From the NCBI GenBank assembly GCA_043798995.1, contig JAZDOD010000010.1, forward strand, positions 845 to 64,844: DNA of 64,000 nucleotides, given 5' to 3'. A program made the position numbers and the translations under genes. Of the stretch, positions 585 to 59,046 are shown one piece after another. How positions within the stretch are numbered: the stretch's first letter is position 1; each line of letters begins with the position of its first letter. Origin of the DNA: a bacterium. Lineage in GTDB: Bacteria > Patescibacteriota > Patescibacteriia > JAACEG01 > JAGUWE01. The notes under the pieces were generated by a model. It searched no databases, was not told where the DNA came from, and saw nothing but the letters and a program-made list of their open reading frames with translations.

Positions 585-711
585 GTCATTGCGACAGCCT
601 GTCCAGAAACTGCCGAATCATACTCTACTGTCATTCCTGCGAAAGCAGGAATCCAGAAAAATAAGATAAATTTCAGATATTCTGGATTCCGCATCAAGTG
701 CGGAATGACAG
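585..711. repeat. MITE-like hairpin element, GTCAT...ATGAC family (copy E1)
   Basis: Termini are 'gtcattgcgacagcc' and 'ggaatgacag'. Internal palindromes are 'gtcattcctgcgaaagcaggaatccaga' and 'tctggattccgcatcaagtgcggaatgac'. It is related to the copies at 36113, 36668 and 49962. The ORF-track ATG at 705 lies inside this repeat. Confidence 0.7.
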
Positions 712-6923: not shown

Positions 6924-6967
6924 TTCGTCATTCTGATCCGCCAGTTGGCGGAGAAGAATCCCGAACA
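6924..6967. repeat. Short hairpin element 'ttcgtcattctga-ccgccagttggcgg-agaagaatcccgaaca' (GTCATTCTGA sub-family)
   Basis: Shares both end motifs with the B units at 7289-7331 and 7411-7452. It has a central palindrome 'ccgccagttggcgg'. Confidence 0.65.
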
Positions 6968-6972
6968 GTTTT

Positions 6973-7260
6973 ATGAAAGAGAACTTTTATGTTTACATTG
7001 CCACCAATAAACGAAATACCGTTTTTTATACTGGGATAACCAGTGATTTGGCAAAAAGAATGTGGCAACATAAACAGAAAGAGGTCAAAGGTTTTACTAG
7101 TAAATATAACATTAACAAATTAGTCTATTACGAGATATTTTCCAATCCCCAAGAGGCAATAGCAGCTGAAAAGAAAATCAAAGGTTGGACAAGAAAAAAG
7201 AAGATTGATTTAATCAAAGAGATTAATCCTGAATTTAAAGATTTGTCAGAAGAACTATAA
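6973..7260 (+). CDS. GIY-YIG nuclease family protein (UPF0213-like, 95 aa)
   Basis: 'FYVYIATNKRNTVFYTGITSDLAKRMWQHK...GFTSKYNINKLVYYE' matches the GIY-YIG catalytic module. The gene is bracketed by repeat elements on both sides. Confidence 0.8.
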   Translation: MKENFYVYIATNKRNTVFYTGITSDLAKRMWQHKQKEVKGFTSKYNINKLVYYEIFSNPQEAIAAEKKIKGWTRKKKIDLIKEINPEFKDLSEEL

Positions 7261-7495
7261 TGAGATCCTTCACTGCGTTCAGGATGACTACTTTTTTCGT
7301 CATTCTGAGCGGAGCGAAGAATCCCGAACAACATTAAAGGGGATCCTTCACTGCGTTCAGGATGACAAGAGAAGATGTTCAGGATGACAAGAGAAGATGC
7401 GTAGGATGACTACTTTTTTCGTCATTCTGAGCGGAGCGAAGAATCCCGAACAAGATCGGATGGGATCCTTCACTTCGTTCAGGATGACCACCCTC
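7261..7495. repeat. Composite array of two repeat units: A = 'gatccttcactgcgttcaggatgac' (x3), B = 'tacttttttcgtcattctgagcggagcgaagaatcccgaaca' (x2)
   Basis: Direct sequence repetition at 7264/7342/7466 (A) and 7289/7411 (B). The ORF-track ORFs 7128..7334(-) and 7357..7590(-) are translations of these repeats and are not called as genes. Confidence 0.75.
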
Positions 7496-15198: not shown

Positions 15199-15621
15199 AT
15201 GGTCAACAACAACAAAAAAACAAAAATCCTCCTGATTGAAGATGACGTTTTTTTATCTAATATTTACAGCAAAAAATTTGAAAGCGAGGGCTTTGAAATG
15301 TTGATTGCTTTGGATGGAGAAAAGGGGCTGAAACTGGCTTTAAGCAAAGAGCCGGCTTTGATTTTATTAGATCTTCTTTTGCCGGGCCTAAACGGCTTTG
15401 AAGTTTTAAAAGTTCTTAAAAAAGACGAAATGGCAAAAAAGATTCCGGTCATTCTTTTAACTAATTTAAGCCAAAAAGAAGATATTGAAAAAGGACTAGC
15501 TTTGGGAGCAGACGATTATTTGATTAAGACCCATTTTATGCCTTCGGAAATAGTGGAAAAAGTCAAGAAGTTTTTAAGCAAAACATCTTTTAAATCCGAA
15601 ATCCTAAGCACTAAACTCTAA
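15199..15621 (+). CDS. Single-domain response regulator (CheY-like receiver)
   Basis: 'KILLIEDD...LILLDLLLPGLNGFEVLKVLK...KIPVILLTN...GADDYLIK' carries the conserved receiver Asp and Lys. It sits between pilB and pilC. Confidence 0.85.
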   Translation: MVNNNKKTKILLIEDDVFLSNIYSKKFESEGFEMLIALDGEKGLKLALSKEPALILLDLLLPGLNGFEVLKVLKKDEMAKKIPVILLTNLSQKEDIEKGLALGADDYLIKTHFMPSEIVEKVKKFLSKTSFKSEILSTKL

Positions 15622-15729
15622 ACAAATTCTAAACTTTAAATCACAAATTCTAAACGGTTTGGAATTTAAAAAATTGGAATTTTGAATTTGTTTAGGATTT
15701 AGAATTTCGGATTTAGGTATTTTTTTATT

Positions 15730-18218: not shown

Positions 18219-18374
18219 AAAAATCTCCCTCAATCCCTCTTTTACAAAGAGGGAAACCGTTTTTCTCCCTTTAAAAAAGGGAGAACCAAAGAGGGATTTG
18301 TATATCTTCTCCTTTTGTCAAAAGGGAGAATTTCCGCCCAAGGCGGATCCGCCTCTGGCGGAAAAGAGGGATTT
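18219..18374. repeat. Hairpin-cluster repeat (AAATC-CCC...GGGATTT family), left direct repeat flanking the DUF559 gene
   Basis: About 110 nt of near-identity with 18739-18850. Both copies end 'tttccgcccaaggcggatccgcctctggcggaaaagagggattt'. Confidence 0.75.
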
Positions 18375-18376
18375 TT

Positions 18377-18739
18377 ATGAGACGTTACTATAAATCTCAT
18401 TTAAGAAATATTTCCAGAAAACTTAGAAGTAATATGACCGAAGCAGAAATAAAACTCTGGAATAGAATTAGAAAAAAACAAATTAACAATTTTCAATTTT
18501 ATAGACAAAAACCGTTAGGTAAATACGTGGCGGATTTCTATTGCCCGGTTAAGGAGTTGGTCATTGAAATAGACGGAGGACAACGTTACGACGAAGCCGG
18601 AGAAATCACAAGGGAAGATAAAGAAAAAGAAAATTATCTTAAAAATATTTTAAAATTAAAAGTAATAAGATTCACTAATATTGAGATAACGAAGAATTTA
18701 GACGGTGTGGTAAATAGTTTAATAGAAGAATTAAAGTAA
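18377..18739 (+). CDS. DUF559 endonuclease-domain protein (Vsr-like fold)
   Basis: 'EAEIKLWNRIRKKQINNFQFYRQKPLGKYVADFYCPVKELVIEIDGGQRY...LKVIRFTNIEI' matches the DUF559 signature (W..LR, FrRQ, DFyc, LvIEiDG, lRf.N). Confidence 0.8.
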   Translation: MRRYYKSHLRNISRKLRSNMTEAEIKLWNRIRKKQINNFQFYRQKPLGKYVADFYCPVKELVIEIDGGQRYDEAGEITREDKEKENYLKNILKLKVIRFTNIEITKNLDGVVNSLIEELK

Positions 18740-18850
18740 AAATCTCCCTCAGTCCCTCTTTTACAAAGAGGGAAGTCACTTCTCTCCCTTTAGAAAAGGG
18801 AGAGTTTCCGCCCAAGGCGGATCCGCCTCTGGCGGAAAAGAGGGATTTGC
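18739..18850. repeat. Right direct repeat flanking the DUF559 gene
   Basis: See 18219-18374. It is a shorter copy that lacks about 45 nt from the middle of the left copy. Confidence 0.75.
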
Positions 18851-32234: not shown

Positions 32235-32280
32235 ATTCATAAATTCCAAATCCCAAGCACCAAATAACAAATAAATTTCA

Positions 32281-32646
32281 ATGACCGAAATTTCAAATTC
32301 CAAACCATACAATTTAGAAGAAAGAACTTTTCAATTTGCTAAAAAAGTAGCACTCTTTTGTAAAAAATTACCAAGAACTGTAAGTAACCTTGAATACGTT
32401 AAACAAGTAATTAGATCATCGGGCTCAACCGGCGCTAATTATATTGAAGCAAATGAGTCATTTAGTAAAAAAGATTTTAGATTAAGGATTAAAATTTGTC
32501 GCAAAGAAGCAAAAGAATCAGTTTATTGGCTGAGATTAATTATTGAAACCAACGACAAGAAATTTGAAAAAGAAGGGAAAGAGCTTTTAGAAGAAGCGAT
32601 GGAACTCAAAAAGATTTTTTCCGCAATTATTGAAAAATCAAAATAA
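32281..32646 (+). CDS. Four-helix-bundle protein (IVS-protein family), copy 3
   Basis: 'SSGSTGANYIEANESFSKKDFRLRIKICRKEAKESVYWLRLI'. Flanked by inverted 'aaatttcaaattccaaa / tttggaatttgaa' word repeats. Confidence 0.7.
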   Translation: MTEISNSKPYNLEERTFQFAKKVALFCKKLPRTVSNLEYVKQVIRSSGSTGANYIEANESFSKKDFRLRIKICRKEAKESVYWLRLIIETNDKKFEKEGKELLEEAMELKKIFSAIIEKSK

Positions 32647-32662
32647 TTTTTGTATTTGATAA

Positions 32663-33460
32663 TTGGAATTTGAATATTATTTGGAATTTGTAATTTGTAA
32701 TTTGGAATTTATGTTCGTTTGTATTTTGAGACATTTTAAAAGATATCCAGAGAGAGGCAATGTTCTCCTTTCCACCATCCTTATTATGGGCATAACGCTT
32801 AACATTGGGCTGGTGATAGCAACCTTAGCTTTAAGTGGTTTTAGTAGGGCGCGGAATATCAAATTGCAATCCTTGTCTTATTATGGGGCCGAAAGCGGCG
32901 TTGAATATAGTTTATTTAAAGTTAGGAAAGGTGGCAGTGAAATTGGTAATTTGAATATTAACGCCGCTACTGAATCTGGCGTCAGCTGGGAGAGCGCGGG
33001 TAAAATTTTTTCATTAGAAATTTTTGAGGATTTAGAAGAAGATAAATCAATCATTCTTTATCTTTATAATCCAGACACTTGGACCAGCGGCATCAATCGA
33101 TTGTTAATTAAGTGGAATGATACTTGTTATGGTAGTTCAGTTTTAGAAATTAAATATTATGAAATTAATGAGCAGACCGATTTAAACAATCTTAATTGGA
33201 CAGGAAAGATTACCAGAGAATGGATACAAGAAGAAACAACGCCACCTGGCACCATTGAAGATCTTTTTTTAAATTCCAACAATGCCTATGCCATGAAAAT
33301 TACAGTAAAAAATTGTTATGTTAATGTTTTAAACATTAACCCCCAAGTGTATAATTATACTACGGGTCAGTATGAAGAAACAAATATTAATATTGAAAAT
33401 GTTATTACCTCTACCGGTGCTTCGGGCGATGTCAAACAGACGATCAGGGTATCGATGTGA
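32663..33460 (+). CDS. Hypothetical membrane-anchored protein with a PilX-N-like hydrophobic N-terminus (probable start at 32711)
   Basis: 'ERGNVLLSTILIMGITLNIGLVIATLALSGFSRARN...YYGAESGVEY' resembles the PilX N-terminal domain. The remainder is Asn-rich with no recognizable domain. Confidence 0.4.
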   Translation: MEFEYYLEFVICNLEFMFVCILRHFKRYPERGNVLLSTILIMGITLNIGLVIATLALSGFSRARNIKLQSLSYYGAESGVEYSLFKVRKGGSEIGNLNINAATESGVSWESAGKIFSLEIFEDLEEDKSIILYLYNPDTWTSGINRLLIKWNDTCYGSSVLEIKYYEINEQTDLNNLNWTGKITREWIQEETTPPGTIEDLFLNSNNAYAMKITVKNCYVNVLNINPQVYNYTTGQYEETNINIENVITSTGASGDVKQTIRVSM

Positions 33461-33577
33461 AATTTTTAATTTTTAATTTTTAATTTTCAATTAAACCGGT
33501 ACTTTGAAATGGCCGGTTTTTGTGATACAATAACAACAAATCCAAAATCCAAAACTCTAAATACTAAACAAATTCTA

Positions 33578-33946
33578 ATGATTCAAATTCCAAATTCCAA
33601 ACGAAATAATAAATATGATTTAGAGGAAAGAAGTCTTAAGTTTGCTAAAAGAGTTAACGATTATGTTAATAAATTGCCTAAAACTATTCCTAACATTGAA
33701 AACGGTAAGCAATTAGTTCGCGCAGCCGGTTCAACCGGTGCTAATTATATCGAAGCTAATGAATCTTTGGGCAAAAAAGATTTTCAAATGAGAATCAAAA
33801 TTTCTAAAAAAGAAGCCAAGGAAAGTGGATTTTGGTTAGAACTATCCCAACCTTTAAAAGAAAATGAAAAAGAAAAACAAGATTTAATTCAAGAAAGCAT
33901 AGAACTTATGAAAATTTTTGGTTCTATTTTAGAAAAGTCAAAATGA
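33578..33946 (+). CDS. Four-helix-bundle protein (IVS-protein family), copy 4
   Basis: 'AAGSTGANYIEANESLGKKDFQMRIKISKKEAKESGFWLEL'. The ORF-track start at 33509 lies inside the left inverted repeat; the Met at 33578 gives a length like copies 1-3. Confidence 0.7.
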   Translation: MIQIPNSKRNNKYDLEERSLKFAKRVNDYVNKLPKTIPNIENGKQLVRAAGSTGANYIEANESLGKKDFQMRIKISKKEAKESGFWLELSQPLKENEKEKQDLIQESIELMKIFGSILEKSK

Positions 33947-34016
33947 AGAGTTTGTGATTTGAAATTTATGATTTAGATATTGTTTAGGATTTAGGATTTC
34001 GAATTTAGAATTTTAA

Positions 34017-36112: not shown

Positions 36113-36262
36113 CTGTCATTCCCGTCCCTGCTTCCGCAGGGGTAAACTTGTCCCCGCGAAAGCGGGGAGCGGGAATCCAGAACTCAGAAAGTTTATCCCT
36201 GGATCCCGCATCTCAGCCCGAGGCTGATCCGCCTTTGGCTGGAAAGTGCGGGATGACAAAAC
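36113..36262. repeat. MITE-like hairpin element (GTCAT...ATGAC family), copy E4
   Basis: 'tgtcattcccgtccctgcttccgcaggg...ggaaagtgcgggatgacaaaa'. Its reverse complement occurs at 36668-36822. Confidence 0.75.
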
Positions 36263-36304: not shown

Positions 36305-36613
36305 ATGCCTACTACTAAAAAAATTTCAATTCAAGAAATTAAGCATTTGGCCGATTTGGCCAGATTAAAAGTGAGCGAAAGCGAGGTCAAAAAATACGCC
36401 TCGGATCTTTCGGCAATTTTAGATTATGTTGCCGAGTTAAAAGGAATAGACACTCAGAAAATTTCTCCGACTGCCCAGGTGGTGGAAACAGAAAATGTTT
36501 TTAAAAATGATTTGGTTGATTTGGATTATACTGCCAAAACTAAAGAAAAAATAATTAAAAATTCGCCCGAAAGTCAGGATAATTTATTTAAGGTTAAAAA
36601 GGTGTTTGAGTAA
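36305..36613 (+). CDS. gatC: Asp-tRNA(Asn)/Glu-tRNA(Gln) amidotransferase subunit C
   Basis: 'ISIQEIKHLADLARLKVSESEVKKYASDLSAILDYVAEL' and length about 100 aa, located upstream of gatA. Confidence 0.85.
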   Translation: MPTTKKISIQEIKHLADLARLKVSESEVKKYASDLSAILDYVAELKGIDTQKISPTAQVVETENVFKNDLVDLDYTAKTKEKIIKNSPESQDNLFKVKKVFE

Positions 36614-36667: not shown

Positions 36668-36822
36668 AATTGTCATCCCGCACTTTCCAGCCAAAGGCGG
36701 ATCAGCCTCGGGCTGAGATGCGGGATCCAGAATGAAAATAGAATAATTGCTGGATTCCTGCTCCCCGCTTTCGCGGGGACAAGTTTACCCCTGCGGAAGC
36801 AGGGACGGGAATGACAAAATAC
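36668..36822. repeat. MITE-like hairpin element, copy E5 (inverted relative to E4)
   Basis: Near-perfect reverse complement of 36113-36262. Confidence 0.75.
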
Positions 36823-43028: not shown

Positions 43029-43146
43029 GTCATTGCCACGCCCACCCCTTTCCGAGTAAAGGGGTGGGCGTGGCAATCTCTTTCTTCATTAAAAATAATA
43101 AGATTGCTTCGTCGTCCGCCAGCTGGCGGACTCCTCGCAATGACAG
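43029..43146. repeat. MITE-like hairpin element (GTCAT...ATGAC family), copy E6
   Basis: 'tgtcattgccacgcccacccctttccgagtaaaggggtgggcgtggcaatc ... cgtcgtccgccagctggcggactcctcgcaatgacag'. Confidence 0.7.
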
Positions 43147-45001: not shown

Positions 45002-45042
45002 AATCCTAAATCCTAAATCCTAAATCCTAAATCCTAAATCCT
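45001..45042. repeat. Tandem heptamer (aaatcct) x6
   Basis: Perfect tandem repeat starting on the stop codon of the preceding gene. Confidence 0.9.
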
Positions 45043-45186
45043 ATTTATTTTTATGTTTATAAACCATTGTAAGTTAAAGGTCGGGCCCTTTAAAAGGCGC
45101 TTGCAATTAAAATTTAATTAACCTTCTAAGTTTGGGCAGAAGTCGAAAATTGCCTTGAACTTAGAAAAAAGGAGAAAAAATTAATT

Positions 45187-49961: not shown

Positions 49962-50121
49962 ATCATTGCGATAGCCTGTCCAAAAACTGTCATTCCGCAC
50001 TTGATGCGGAATCCAGAATATCTGAAATTTATCTTATTTTTCTGGATTCCTGCTCCCCGCTTTCGCGGGGACAACCCCGTATTTAATACGGGGCCTGCGG
50101 AAGCAGGGGCAGGAATGACAA
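49962..50121. repeat. MITE-like hairpin element (GTCAT...ATGAC family), copy E7
   Basis: 'tcattgcgatagcctgtccaaaaactgtcattccgcacttgatgcggaatccagaa...ttctggattcctgctccccgctttcgcggggacaa...gcaggggcaggaatgacaag'. It shares modules with E1 and E4. Confidence 0.75.
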
Positions 50122-50128
50122 GAAGTAT

Positions 50129-51376
50129 TTATTTAGAATAAAGTTTAATAGTTTTACTTAACATTTTTTCAAAACCAAATTCTTTTTCAAATTTTTCTTT
50201 CGCCTTTTGGCCAAAATTTTTCGCTAAGTCAGGATTTTCCAGCATCTGGCTTATTTTTTCTGCCAAAATTTCACTTTCTCTTGGCTGAACTAAAAAGCCG
50301 GATACCCCGTCTTCAATCATTTCCGAGATGCCCCCGACTCGGGTAGCGACAATCGGCAGCTCGGCTGCCATAGCTTCTAAAATAGTGTAAGGCAAGCCTT
50401 CCTTGACCGATGATAAAACAAAAATATCAAAGGCCTTAAGATATCTGTAGGCGTCAGCGATTTTTACTAACTTAAAATTATCTTGTAAATTTAGTTGGTT
50501 AATTTTTTTATTCAGAAATTCTCTTTGTTGACCTTCGCCAATCAAAACAAAAAGAATATCAGGAAATTTTTTTCTCACCAAATCAGCTGCTTTAATTAAA
50601 TAATTAAGTCCCTTGGTCGGATAAAAATTAGCGATCGTGCCAATGATTTTGAATTTTGAATTATGAATTATGAATTTAGAATTAATCATGTTTAGTAATT
50701 TCTCTCTGGCCTCGTTTCTTTCTAAAAATTTTAAAGTATTAACATCGATGCCGTTATGAATAGTAATTAATTTTTCCTCGGAAAAATTATTCTTTACGGC
50801 AACTTGCCGGTCAAATTCCGAAACGCAGATAATCTTGTCTTTAAAGAAAGCGGTAAATTTTTCCGCCCAAAAATAAAAAGTTTTCTGCCAGTGCGATAAA
50901 GGTTCGTTAAAAACCCAGCCATGAACGGTATAAAGCACATAACATTTAACATGAAACATGAAACAAATTTTAGCCGCTACAGAGCCGAGAATGGAAACTT
51001 TTGAACTATTAAGGTGGATAATGTCTGGTTTTTCTTTTTTGATTAATCTAACGATTTCTATTAACCCCCAAAAATCAGTCAAAGGGTTAATGGCTCTAAC
51101 CAGATTTTTAAGATAAATTGTTTTAATGCCTTTTTGGGCGAGTTTCTTAAATAATTCACCATTTTCATCTTCGCCGGCAGCCACCACTGCTTCAAAAAAA
51201 ATGTCATTGCGAGGACCCCGCGTAGCGGGGGATGTGGCAATCCCATTCAAAACTGAAAGAGATCCCTCGCCCTGTTTTGGCAGGACTCGGGATGACAGAG
51301 CGGTTGCCAAATCAAAAACATATTTCTGCGCTCCGCCCCACTCGGACTGGGTTATGATATATAATATTTTTTTCAT
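50129..51376 (-). CDS. Glycosyltransferase family 4 (GT-B), carrying an in-frame 32-codon repeat-element insertion near its N-terminus
   Basis: 'MKKILYIITQSEWGGAQKYVFDLATAL...' is the typical GT4 N-terminus, and the 'E...GGISEMIEDGVSGFL' motif lies near the C-terminus. Residues 27-60 are encoded by repeat copy E8. Confidence 0.8.
   Translation of the reverse strand: MKKILYIITQSEWGGAQKYVFDLATALSSRVLPKQGEGSLSVLNGIATSPATRGPRNDIFFEAVVAAGEDENGELFKKLAQKGIKTIYLKNLVRAINPLTDFWGLIEIVRLIKKEKPDIIHLNSSKVSILGSVAAKICFMFHVKCYVLYTVHGWVFNEPLSHWQKTFYFWAEKFTAFFKDKIICVSEFDRQVAVKNNFSEEKLITIHNGIDVNTLKFLERNEAREKLLNMINSKFIIHNSKFKIIGTIANFYPTKGLNYLIKAADLVRKKFPDILFVLIGEGQQREFLNKKINQLNLQDNFKLVKIADAYRYLKAFDIFVLSSVKEGLPYTILEAMAAELPIVATRVGGISEMIEDGVSGFLVQPRESEILAEKISQMLENPDLAKNFGQKAKEKFEKEFGFEKMLSKTIKLYSK
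51203..51298. repeat. MITE-like hairpin element, copy E8; 96 bp, inside the GT4 coding sequence
   Basis: 'gtcattgcgaggaccccgcgtagcgggggatgtggcaatc...cctgttttggcaggactcgggatgacag'. Its termini are the same as the intergenic copies, and its length is a multiple of 3. Confidence 0.7.
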
Positions 51377-57831: not shown

Positions 57832-59046
57832 ATGAAAATGGTTATTGCGGCTGAGATTTTTCCGCCTGATATCGGCGGACCGGCAACTTATGCCCAAAAA
57901 TTAGCCGAGGAATTAGAAAAAAAAGGTTATTCGCTGACTCTTCTTTGTTATGGCGAAAAAACGGCTGAGCAATTTTCTTTTCCGGTTTTAAGAGTCAGTC
58001 GCCGGCAACCTCTTTTTTGGCGCTATTTTAACTATTTTTGGCAGTTATTGAAAGCAAGTCGTGATGCTTCCTTAATTTATGCCCAGGGGCCGGTGAGTTC
58101 TGGCTGGCCAGCTTTATGGGTTAAAAAATTACTCGGGAAAAGATTAGTAGTTAAAGTGGTGGGAGATTATGCTTGGGAACAGTGGCAAAACGAAGTTAAA
58201 AGTTTAAAGTTTAAAGTTAAAAGTCGCGATGAAAAATTTGAAAATTTAGAGGATTTTCAAAAGATTAAAGTTAGCAGCAAGATTGGCTGGTTAAAAAAAA
58301 TTGAGAGAAAAGTTTGCCAAAAAGCTGAGGCGGTGATTGTGCCAAGTTATTATTTAAAAAAAATAGTTGCTTCTTGGGGAGTTGATGAGAAAAAAATAAA
58401 AGTCGTTTATAACGCGATTGAAATTCCTGTGCCTTTGGTGAGTAAAAACCAGGCCAAGGAGCAAGTGAAATTAAATGGCGATTTAATAGTTTCTGCCGGC
58501 CGTTTAGTCAAGTGGAAAGGTTTTGAGGCGTTGATTGAGATTATGCCGCGCCTTTTGGCAGTCAATCCTAATTTTAAATTAATTATTATTGGTGATGGGC
58601 CGGAAAAAGAAAATCTTAAATCTCAAATCTCCCGCCTGTCATCGGCTTTGCCTCAGGCAAATGGCGGGCAGGTAAATCTCAAACTTCAAGAAAAGGTTAT
58701 TTTAACCGGCAAACTTTCTCAACCAGAAGTGATTTGTTATTTAAAGGCAGCTGATACATTTGTTTTAAACAGCGGCTATGAGGGTTTGTCTCATCTGCTT
58801 TTGGAGGCAATGGCTGTTGGAGCGCCGATCATTGCCACCAATATCGGCGGTAATCCGGAATTAATAAAGCACAATGATAATGGTTTTTTAGTTGAATATA
58901 ATAATAAGGAAGAGCTTTTGGACGCCATTATTCAGCTTTGGCGCGATAAAAATTTACAAAATAAATTTGTTAATAATTCCGAGGAGGTTTTAGAAAAGTT
59001 TAAATTTTCCAAAATGATAGAAGAAACGATAAGAATTCTAAAATAA
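57832..59046 (+). CDS. Glycosyltransferase family 4
   Basis: N-terminal 'EIFPPDIGGPATYAQKLAEEL' and C-terminal 'EGLSHLLLEAMAVGAPIIATNIGGNPELI' GT4 motifs. Confidence 0.8.
   Translation: MKMVIAAEIFPPDIGGPATYAQKLAEELEKKGYSLTLLCYGEKTAEQFSFPVLRVSRRQPLFWRYFNYFWQLLKASRDASLIYAQGPVSSGWPALWVKKLLGKRLVVKVVGDYAWEQWQNEVKSLKFKVKSRDEKFENLEDFQKIKVSSKIGWLKKIERKVCQKAEAVIVPSYYLKKIVASWGVDEKKIKVVYNAIEIPVPLVSKNQAKEQVKLNGDLIVSAGRLVKWKGFEALIEIMPRLLAVNPNFKLIIIGDGPEKENLKSQISRLSSALPQANGGQVNLKLQEKVILTGKLSQPEVICYLKAADTFVLNSGYEGLSHLLLEAMAVGAPIIATNIGGNPELIKHNDNGFLVEYNNKEELLDAIIQLWRDKNLQNKFVNNSEEVLEKFKFSKMIEETIRILK

Follow-up and report, generated by a model that had tools for sequence, protein, structure and literature searches.

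How can a hairpin repeat come to lie inside a protein-coding gene without destroying it? The question was raised by a 64,000-nt stretch of contig JAZDOD010000010.1 (assembly GCA_043798995.1, Patescibacteriota), referred to here as the window. Its gene for a glycosyltransferase of family 4 (GT4), located at positions 50129..51376 on the minus strand, contains a 96-nt element at 51203..51298 that was recognised as an inverted dimer of tagged hairpins. The element corresponds to 32 codons and to residues ~28-59 of the 415-aa product, in the loop between helix alpha1 and strand beta2 of a GT-B fold. A preliminary description of this DNA had called the element a MITE, short for miniature inverted-repeat transposable element, and left two readings, a tolerated loop insertion or a recent inactivating event. 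Sequence comparison, structure prediction and the search for further copies made it likely that a hairpin dimer, resembling the REPIN pairs of repetitive extragenic palindromic (REP) sequences and related to the hairpins of Ssn nucleases, was inserted once in an ancestral GT4 gene and kept as a tolerated in-frame loop of a functional gene.

The insert and its reading frame

The element begins with GTCATTGCGA at position 51203 and ends with GGGATGACAG at position 51298, its boundaries being fixed to about +/-2 nt. On the gene strand, the translation across it reads ...KYVFDLATAL-SSRVLPKQGEGSLSVLNGIATSPATRGPRNDI-FFEAVVAAG. One example of a peptide stretch inside the predicted translation of the insert is QGEGSLSVLNGIATSPATR. 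That a 96-nt segment lies in frame inside the GT4 gene, as first described, was borne out by the sequence, by the open reading frame (ORF) at 50129..51376 (-) and by Pfam. The peptide first quoted for it was slightly too long, comprising 34 residues with the flanking L and F included, whereas 96 nt encode 32.

The GC content of the insert was 55%, compared with 39.5% for the whole window. Two of the six reading frames through the element were free of stop codons, and the host gene uses one of these two. Terminal inverted repeats were present (TGTCAT...ATGACA); over 11 nt, GTCATTGCGAG and GTCATCCCGAG matched at 9/11 positions. Direct repeats indicating a target-site duplication were seen neither around the insert nor around the inspected intergenic copies, with no empty site for comparison. 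The scan for intrinsic terminators (a sense-strand hairpin followed by T8) gave no call at the insert. An intein or intron was rejected as an explanation, as the 32-aa insert held no Hint or endonuclease domain and the frame was kept in three length variants.

State and predicted fold of the enzyme

The host gene appeared intact in the ORF, Pfam, AlphaFold, Foldseek and dN/dS (ratio of nonsynonymous to synonymous divergence) analyses. Its product matched Glycos_transf_1 with 2e-40 and Glyco_transf_4 with 1e-18, the two domains of a GT-B fold. The match to Glyco_transf_4, the N-terminal domain, began at residue 84, equivalent to profile position 40; it starts this late because the insert interrupts the first part of the domain. 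No stops or frameshifts were present in the GT4 ORF. All 25 of the 25 invariant columns of a 73-sequence alignment were retained, including E326 and E334 of the GT4 E-x7-E motif, in agreement with the first impression that the GT4 motifs downstream of the insert are intact. Outside the insert, dN/dS was 0.28 and 0.24 in comparison with two related genes, L001 and L002, at synonymous divergences (dS) of 0.45 and 0.56, respectively. The insert was present in all three lineages of this comparison. The sequence evidence thus indicates that the GT4 gene is alive and under purifying selection, and from the maintenance of frame and ORF we infer that the insert is translated.

Given the alignment of the family as input, AlphaFold2 produced a complete GT-B fold with a mean predicted local distance difference test score (pLDDT) of 92 and a predicted TM-score (pTM) of 0.89. 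Foldseek matches in the PDB were GT4 enzymes, with HepE (4xsp) as the best (TM 0.89), followed by BA1558 and BshA. Residues 29-60 were modelled as coil with pLDDT 45-59 between a helix (residues 15-28) and a strand (residues 61-68). The structure prediction proposed at the outset thus placed the insert in a low-confidence coil, and the insert probably forms an extra, disordered surface loop of ~32 residues.

In GT-B enzymes, the acceptor side is formed chiefly by the N-terminal domain, and the C-terminal domain is the chief binding site of the nucleotide-sugar donor. A Rossmann-like beta1-loop-alpha1-loop-beta2 unit turns the Gly-rich loop that follows beta1 towards the cleft and has its alpha1-beta2 turn at the far edge. 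From this general knowledge of the fold, the inserted loop is expected to be directed away from the active site. The domain had initially been named a nucleotide-sugar-binding Rossmann domain; it is the Rossmann-like N-terminal domain, which by what is generally known of such enzymes belongs chiefly to the acceptor side.

A 30-nt AT-rich repeat at 50654-50683 also lies inside the GT4 gene. Apart from the insert, the residues that it covers (~231-242) are the one part of the model with low confidence (pLDDT 66). It is a member of an AT-rich repeat family (AAATCCTAAATCC-like) that flanks small ORFs, with further copies at 15592-15720, 32241-32713, 33538-34013 and 45008-45048.

Orthologues with and without the insert

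The window's GT4 protein (the query) was aligned with its 120 best homologues, which were all of Patescibacteria/Parcubacteria type where named. The alpha1-beta2 loop, between the ...DLAxxL helix and the xFxIxVAAG strand, comprised 3-6 residues in 117 of the 121 sequences. A long loop of 34-43 residues was confined to the query, P0001, P0002 and P0005. This alignment supported the lineage specificity that had been proposed for the insert. The objection that orthologues might share the segment does not apply to the family as a whole, and it holds only for the two closest relatives.

These relatives, L001 and L002, originated from independent Logan assemblies of two other samples, and their proteins were 75% and 73% identical to the query. 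Their inserts occupied the same nucleotide position in the same orientation and had the same skeleton, CTGTCATCCCGAG-hp1-GAGGGATCTC-spacer-GGGATTGCCACA-hp2-CTCGCAATGAC, where hp1 and hp2 are the inner hairpins. The DNA of the query and L001 was 82% identical overall and 90-97% identical in the 30-nt blocks flanking the insert. With the synonymous divergence of the gene itself as neutral yardstick (dS 0.45, expected p-distance 0.34), the skeleton was conserved beyond expectation: 46/46 bases were identical (P ~5e-9), and for the 28 positions singled out beforehand as recognition determinants the identity gave P ~9e-6. The inner hairpins and the spacer were 52% identical after optimal alignment, which is the level of shuffled sequences and falls somewhat short of the 66% expected under neutrality (P = 0.02). 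Their lengths differed too. Each version of the insert still formed its hairpins, and the versions comprised 96, 99 and 114 nt, all multiples of three.

A third orthologue, L003, was 50% identical to the query in a locus of conserved synteny (tetratricopeptide repeat gene, GT4, UDP-glucose dehydrogenase, epimerase). Its insert of 114 nt lay ~2 codons from the query site and combined GTCATTGCGAGG...GCAATC with GGGATCGC...CGCGATGAC, a clearly different member. It represents a separate insertion into this loop. For the query, L001 and L002, a single ancestral insertion before their split is favoured, because position, orientation and the unusual pairing of ATCCC and ATTGC stems all coincide. In that case, selection or homogenisation with other copies would have held the skeleton constant while the interiors were swapped or diverged to saturation; the other possible history is the independent entry of two related elements at one nucleotide.

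Translated repeats were also found elsewhere in the family. Translations of tagged hairpins lay at other sites in P0049 (IARTPS...EAIS...IASAALRQ) and P0073 (three copies of ISGSPHRHPEF), and P0098 had an independent in-frame repeat-like insert. P0008 (L105 ~420-470), P0033 (L104 ~410-500) and others had unrelated GC palindromes in the loop after VAAG. As other orthologues thus bear translated repeats or palindromes at other sites, in-frame hairpin insertion is, on sequence grounds, a recurrent property of this GT4 family in these genomes.

A second GT4 gene of the window (57832-59046) may contain an insert of its own. At 58618-58683, a 45-nt GC-rich palindrome encoding SRLSSALPQANGGQV is flanked on both sides by AAATCTCAAA; the two flanking copies are 56 nt apart and hence in different frames. 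The palindrome is not of the GTCAT-tagged type. The Pfam match of this gene to Glycos_transf_1 was split into two stretches.

Architecture of the hairpin modules

Each half of the insert is a module. It opens with a GTC tag, followed by a 5-bp stem whose first bases are AT; between this stem and its closing partner lies a variable GC-rich inner hairpin, and a C comes last. The left module (51203..51242, +) comprises GTC, the stem ATTGC, the nested hairpin CCCCGC-GTA-GCGGGG, the closing stem GCAAT and C. An AT-rich spacer follows at 51243..51260, which differs in sequence between the query and L001. The right module (51261..51296, -) reads GTC, ATCCC, GAG, CCTG-CCAAAA-CAGG, CGA, GGGAT and C on the minus strand. 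Whole dimers follow the order (T/C)GTC, AT-stem, variable GC hairpin, complementary stem, C(C/T)C, AT-rich spacer and the mirror image ending in ...ATGAC(A/G). About nine elements of this build were present in the window.

Modules were counted with a relaxed definition (GTC + ATxyz ... z'y'x'AT + C, within 75 nt) that was fixed beforehand. It was adopted after the published pattern of SRM hairpins had given no match, and was tested against shuffled sequences. The window held 24 modules, compared with 1.36 expected and a maximum of five in 100 dinucleotide-preserving shuffles, an 18-fold enrichment. Both halves of the insert satisfied the definition. The DNA fold of the whole element had a z score of -2.5 to -2.7.

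The element had first been described as a repeat copy with family termini. Termini and architecture are indeed shared with other elements, but blastn and a 3-mismatch pattern search detected no full-length close copy in the window, where only the termini of 11-20 nt recurred. An exact repeat copy was therefore dropped in favour of a family defined at the level of modules. Within the window, the pairing of an ATCCC stem with an ATTGC stem was confined to the insert; all other dimers have another stem pairing.

Outside the window, the variant TTGCGAGGACCCCGCNNNGCGGGG of the left module was detected in 20 metagenome contigs with at least 12 distinct flanking contexts, counted by inspection. It occurred as single modules, in inverted dimers (L092, L094, L097, L103) and, in L091/L096, as a tandem array of three directly upstream of a GIY-YIG gene. 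The module of L091/L096 differed from the left module of the query by 1 nt plus the loop. The skeleton of the right module, GTCATCCCGAG...CGAGGGATCTC, was also found in L013, L020, L095 and L099. The original comparison with intergenic repeats was thereby upheld through recurring modules, left variant and right skeleton. No donor for the inner hairpins was found in the 305 kb of DNA searched.

A Ssn-like nuclease gene bracketed by hairpins

The window contains a candidate trans-acting partner for the repeats. The gene at 6973..7260 (+) encodes a putative Ssn-like single-domain GIY-YIG nuclease of 95 aa, with the Pfam GIY-YIG domain (1.3e-18) spanning residues 5-78. It thereby fits the description of Ssn nucleases as proteins of about 94 aa with this one domain and with catalytic Tyr, Tyr and Glu residues conserved. 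In comparison with 20 homologues, Y8, Y19, R29, H33 and E66 were invariant and Y6 nearly so. The NCBIfam search with this protein gave no hit, and the PDB sequence search gave only weak UPF0213 hits. In species-representative genomes, 576 relatives were found.

A tagged hairpin lies directly upstream of the gene (6927..6960, +), and an inverted one begins 4 nt past its stop codon (7264..7288, -). This layout was examined at 80 homologous loci from species-representative genomes of many phyla, counting correctly oriented modules that ended 5-50 nt upstream and inverted modules that started between -30 and +20 of the stop. The upstream module was present in 40/80 loci, with 2.1 expected (P ~1e-41), and the downstream inverted module in 39/80 loci, with 1.3 expected (P ~1e-47). 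Bracketing of GIY-YIG loci by hairpins had been published before and is reproduced here. Modules with an ATTGC stem, as in the left half of the insert, adjoin a GIY-YIG gene in L096.

The gene concerned (L096 ~1106-1560, equal to the sequence of L091) has three ATTGC-stem modules upstream and is itself broken after ...DDPTSAI. The interruption comprises ~150 nt with two hairpins, and the C-terminal coding part continues downstream.

Comparison with known repeat systems

In CGTC-tagged REPs, the CGTC tag is combined with a stem that begins with AT and with a short tail rich in C; they occur mostly as inverted dimers in several phyla (Di Nocera et al. 2013, PMC3733652). Dimers located within genes code for 20-30 aa, different REPs occupy about the same site in orthologues of recB in Xanthomonas, and the repeats 'apparently lack a dedicated transposase' (PMC3733652). 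The insert resembles them in its AT-started stem and short C-rich tail and, in the looser form (C/T)GTC, in its tag, in being an inverted dimer that encodes a similar number of residues (~32 aa), and in the presence of different members near one site in orthologues. Differences were also evident. Both insert modules read TGTC, whereas the window copies at 6926, 7298 and 7420 and the member in L003 read CGTC. The published stem has 8-9 bp and a loop of 4-5 nt, in contrast to a 5-bp stem and a 20-25 nt interior with a nested hairpin in the insert; short window copies such as 7299-7323 come nearer to the published definition. The phyla of the Candidate Phyla Radiation (CPR) are outside the five phyla reported (PMC3733652).

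Ssn enzymes are small single-domain GIY-YIG proteins that recognise NTS/SRM hairpins in single-stranded form and cleave the DNA a few nt upstream of them (Chenal et al. 2025, PMC11893778). There, GTC 5' of the palindrome is needed for cleavage and the C after it for binding, with loop identity being dispensable; the genes are arranged as NTS-ssnA-NTS, and mobility is no more than a hypothesis, drawn from the analogy with IS200/IS605 and with REP-associated tyrosine transposases (RAYT). Both insert modules have GTC directly 5' of a palindrome (51203, GTC-ATTGC, plus strand; 51296, GTC-ATCCC, minus strand) and a C directly after it (ATTGC...GCAAT-C; ATCCC...GGGAT-C). The arrangement of hairpin, small GIY-YIG gene and inverted hairpin is likewise shared by the window and about half of the 80 loci. 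In-frame copies in protein-coding genes are not treated in the passages of PMC11893778 that were consulted. Membership of the insert in this family is proposed from architecture and recognition determinants, since the formal SRM and CGTC patterns are not matched.

Rickettsia palindromic elements (RPE) lie in frame in unrelated housekeeping genes, where they encode peptides considered fold-compatible, and are also intergenic (PMC10969869, PMC3733652). RPE-4/-6 and the Neisseria repeat dRS3 have been equated with CGTC-tagged REPs (PMC3733652), and the likeness of the insert to RPE-4/-6 rests on this equation, as a comparison by description rather than by consensus sequence. In-frame copies in genes alongside intergenic copies of short palindromic repeats are the common feature. 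The CPR/Patescibacteria-type host, the GT4 gene and the long nested inner hairpins of the modules set the insert apart.

In the REPIN/RAYT system, REP doublets are mobilised by IS200/IS605-like tyrosine transposases. The present system shares the non-autonomous inverted hairpin pairs, the bracketing of a single-copy enzyme gene and the lack of an obvious target duplication. It differs in its enzyme, a GIY-YIG nuclease and not an HUH tyrosine transposase, and in its tag, GTC and not GTAG.

Classical MITEs (Coxiella QMITE1/2, Nezha, Correia/NEMIS) occasionally form in-frame fusions (PMC5896051), and like them the insert is a small element, of a non-coding, multi-copy type, with inverted termini. 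The label MITE used at first holds to this extent, a small element of a repeat family with inverted termini. It is loose for an inverted dimer of GTC-tagged REP/SRM hairpins: no target-site duplication was seen, it did not arise by deletion from a transposase-bearing insertion sequence (IS), near-identical full-length copies such as a parental IS would leave were not found in the window, members share termini and stems and not the interior, and the partner gene encodes a small GIY-YIG nuclease instead of a classical transposase.

In-frame insertion of such repeats is well precedented, by RPEs, by intragenic dimers of CGTC- and GTAG-type REPs and by different REPs at one orthologous site. A literature search of limited scope found no description of such inserts in Patescibacteria. 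The present case extends the phenomenon, known mainly from Rickettsia and some Proteobacteria, to genomes of the CPR/Patescibacteria type, and ties in-frame insertion to the family of hairpins recognised by Ssn nucleases. Presence and absence among syntenic orthologues provides comparative evidence for the insertion of dimers at new sites, which the Ssn paper only hypothesised (PMC11893778). A frozen skeleton next to fully diverged interiors within coding sequence offers a natural test case for the maintenance of repeats. For annotation, the inserts matter as they split domain matches and can be mistaken for gene damage.

Proposed course of the insertion and alternative explanations

One inverted dimer would have entered the GT4 gene before the query, L001 and L002 lineages separated. 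The place of entry would have been the short link between alpha1 and beta2 in the Rossmann-like N-terminal domain, with a stop-free frame in use. Survival would have required three conditions to coincide: a permissive surface turn, an open frame through the element and a length divisible by three. Because this length is a multiple of three, the enzyme would still be made, and it would remain functional with an extra disordered surface loop. After the insertion, the recognition skeleton would have stayed constant while the inner hairpins and the spacer turned over completely, the length remaining a multiple of three. The spread of dimers would depend on a Ssn-type nuclease acting on extruded or single-stranded hairpin DNA. 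Such spread is probable by analogy, considering the bracketing of the genes by hairpins, the published biochemistry of relatives and the RAYT/REPIN system.

Several observations weigh against this course of events. An empty site was sought in close relatives and none was found, the nearest insert-free orthologues being 52-53% identical; for this reason, the boundaries are given to about +/-2 nt only. Neither the exact GT4 product nor P0121, the identical GIY-YIG protein, had a record in the contig collection. The published SRM pattern HGTCWYN(0-2)YYVSBRHN(0-5)WNVSBRGN(0-2)RNCYNB had 0 matches in the whole window; it presumes GC-rich stems and a loop of <=5 nt, and even the most NTS-like window copies did not match it. 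The window's Ssn-like gene is flanked by modules with ATTCT/ATCCT stems, and the stems of the insert are ATTGC/ATCCC. As these stems differ and published Ssn enzymes are sequence-specific, the cognate enzyme of the insert, if any, may be a different paralogue outside the window. Finally, the extent of the interior difference leaves room for two independent insertions at one hotspot.

The last point leads to the alternative that the query and the L001/L002 lineages each gained a different member at the same nucleotide through a target preference. Interior hairpins and spacers no more alike than shuffled sequences, and of different lengths, would be expected from such a history, the different member ~2 codons off in L003 suggests that the site was hit repeatedly, and Xanthomonas recB provides a precedent (PMC3733652). 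We nevertheless regard two entries as unlikely, since they would have to coincide in nucleotide, orientation and an ATCCC/ATTGC pairing that no other window dimer has, and the deficit of interior identity against the neutral level was only marginal (P = 0.02). A different mover is a more serious contender, possible although doubtful. The dimers would then have been spread by an IS200/IS605-type Y1 (RAYT-like) transposase, or by recombination or gene conversion, with the GIY-YIG gene a mere passenger or host regulator. A Y1_Tnp (IS200/IS605-type) gene does lie at 10735-11362 of L003, 4.4 kb from the insert-bearing orthologue, the flanking modules of the window's GIY-YIG gene have stems unlike those of the insert, and Ssn-driven transposition has never been shown, PMC11893778 only raising the IS analogy. 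The tight bracketing of GIY-YIG genes, with fixed orientation and distances across phyla, and the lack of a transposase association of CGTC-type repeats (PMC3733652) speak for the nuclease instead; that no Y1 transposase was among the 10 window ORFs scanned against Pfam is a weak argument in the same direction.

Inactivation, with the gene now a pseudogene or becoming one, would fit the split N-terminal GT4 profile match, with its Pfam hit from residue 84, and an exact product without a record in protein or contig collections. It is very unlikely in view of an ORF without stops or frameshifts, the retention of all invariant family residues, dN/dS of 0.24-0.28 over dS ~0.5 with the insert in all three lineages, insert lengths that stay multiples of three and a confident GT-B model for the rest of the protein. 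Of the two readings left by the preliminary description, the recent inactivating event was not supported, considering the lack of stops, the purifying selection and the sharing of the insert with two relatives. The tolerated loop was supported by the shared position in these relatives (dS 0.45-0.56), the dN/dS values, the invariant residues and the model with pLDDT 92. A native lineage-specific loop or an assembly artefact with chance resemblance to repeats could be argued from the lack of a full-length copy in the window. This explanation is already contradicted and has next to no probability left: the GC content of the insert stands out from the window (55% and 39.5%), both halves fit the 18-fold enriched module definition, the left half equals dispersed metagenomic copies to 1 nt plus the loop, and a homologous insert occurs in independent assemblies from two other samples.

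With the single, tolerated insertion of a hairpin dimer as the preferred explanation, a more far-reaching idea about the skeleton seems rather improbable, namely that the intragenic copy is more than a dead remnant and has its skeleton kept by selection at the DNA level, either as a live single-stranded DNA nuclease target in a cell-surface glycan gene or as a scaffold for cassette exchange. If it were a nuclease target, it could delimit the recombination of DNA that enters the cell, a role that has been suggested for the NTS of Neisseria. If it were a scaffold, swapped inner hairpin 'cassettes' would rewrite a protein surface loop with the frame intact.

Other repeats and genes of the window

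No tRNA genes and no Rfam families at the gathering threshold were detected in the whole 64 kb. The window contains two giant ORFs (2072 and 3046 aa) and, at 50-62 kb, a cluster of GT4, PMT and sugar-nucleotide genes.

Several intergenic dimers of the family were located. Of the window's elements, the dimer at 43029..43144, with ATTGC stems and a DNA fold z score of -8.7, came nearest to the insert in architecture. Another one (49989..50119) lies just 3' of the GT4 gene, and an identical copy of its right half forms a module upstream of the L002 orthologue. Two tandem short dimers (7299-7366 and 7421-7488, together 7299..7488) of family D8 follow downstream of the GIY-YIG unit. The dimer at 630..709 satisfied the module definition with ATTCC stems and the NTS-like GTCATTCCTGCGAAAGCAGGAATCCA.

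The dimer at 36115..36257 has an inverted second copy at 36672-36815. These 147-nt copies are 99-100% complementary and bracket gatC (36305-36613) in the ligA-gatA interval. This composite-like layout could favour inversion or loss of gatC. Two further hairpin-element copies of 82 nt, at 644-725 and 49973-50054, are inverted, 98% complementary and 49 kb apart, the first upstream of the 2072-aa ORF and the second just 3' of GT4. They are possible substrates for large inversions.

At 49992-50012 (minus), just downstream of the GT4 stop, a module followed by a T-run had a terminator-like score, in agreement with the reported tendency of such repeats to occur at gene 3' ends. For the 2072-aa protein (705) and for gatA (36811), the mechanically assigned ORF start coincides with the ATG of an element terminus (ATGACA). 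Their true starts are probably downstream, and element termini can yield spurious N-terminal extensions. Near-identical GC palindromes of 55 nt (CCGCCCAAGGCGGATCCGCCTCTGGCGG) at 18320-18374 and 18794-18848 bracket an ORF at 18377-18739. Distant relatives of these palindromes occur inside the elements at 36.2 kb and 36.7 kb.

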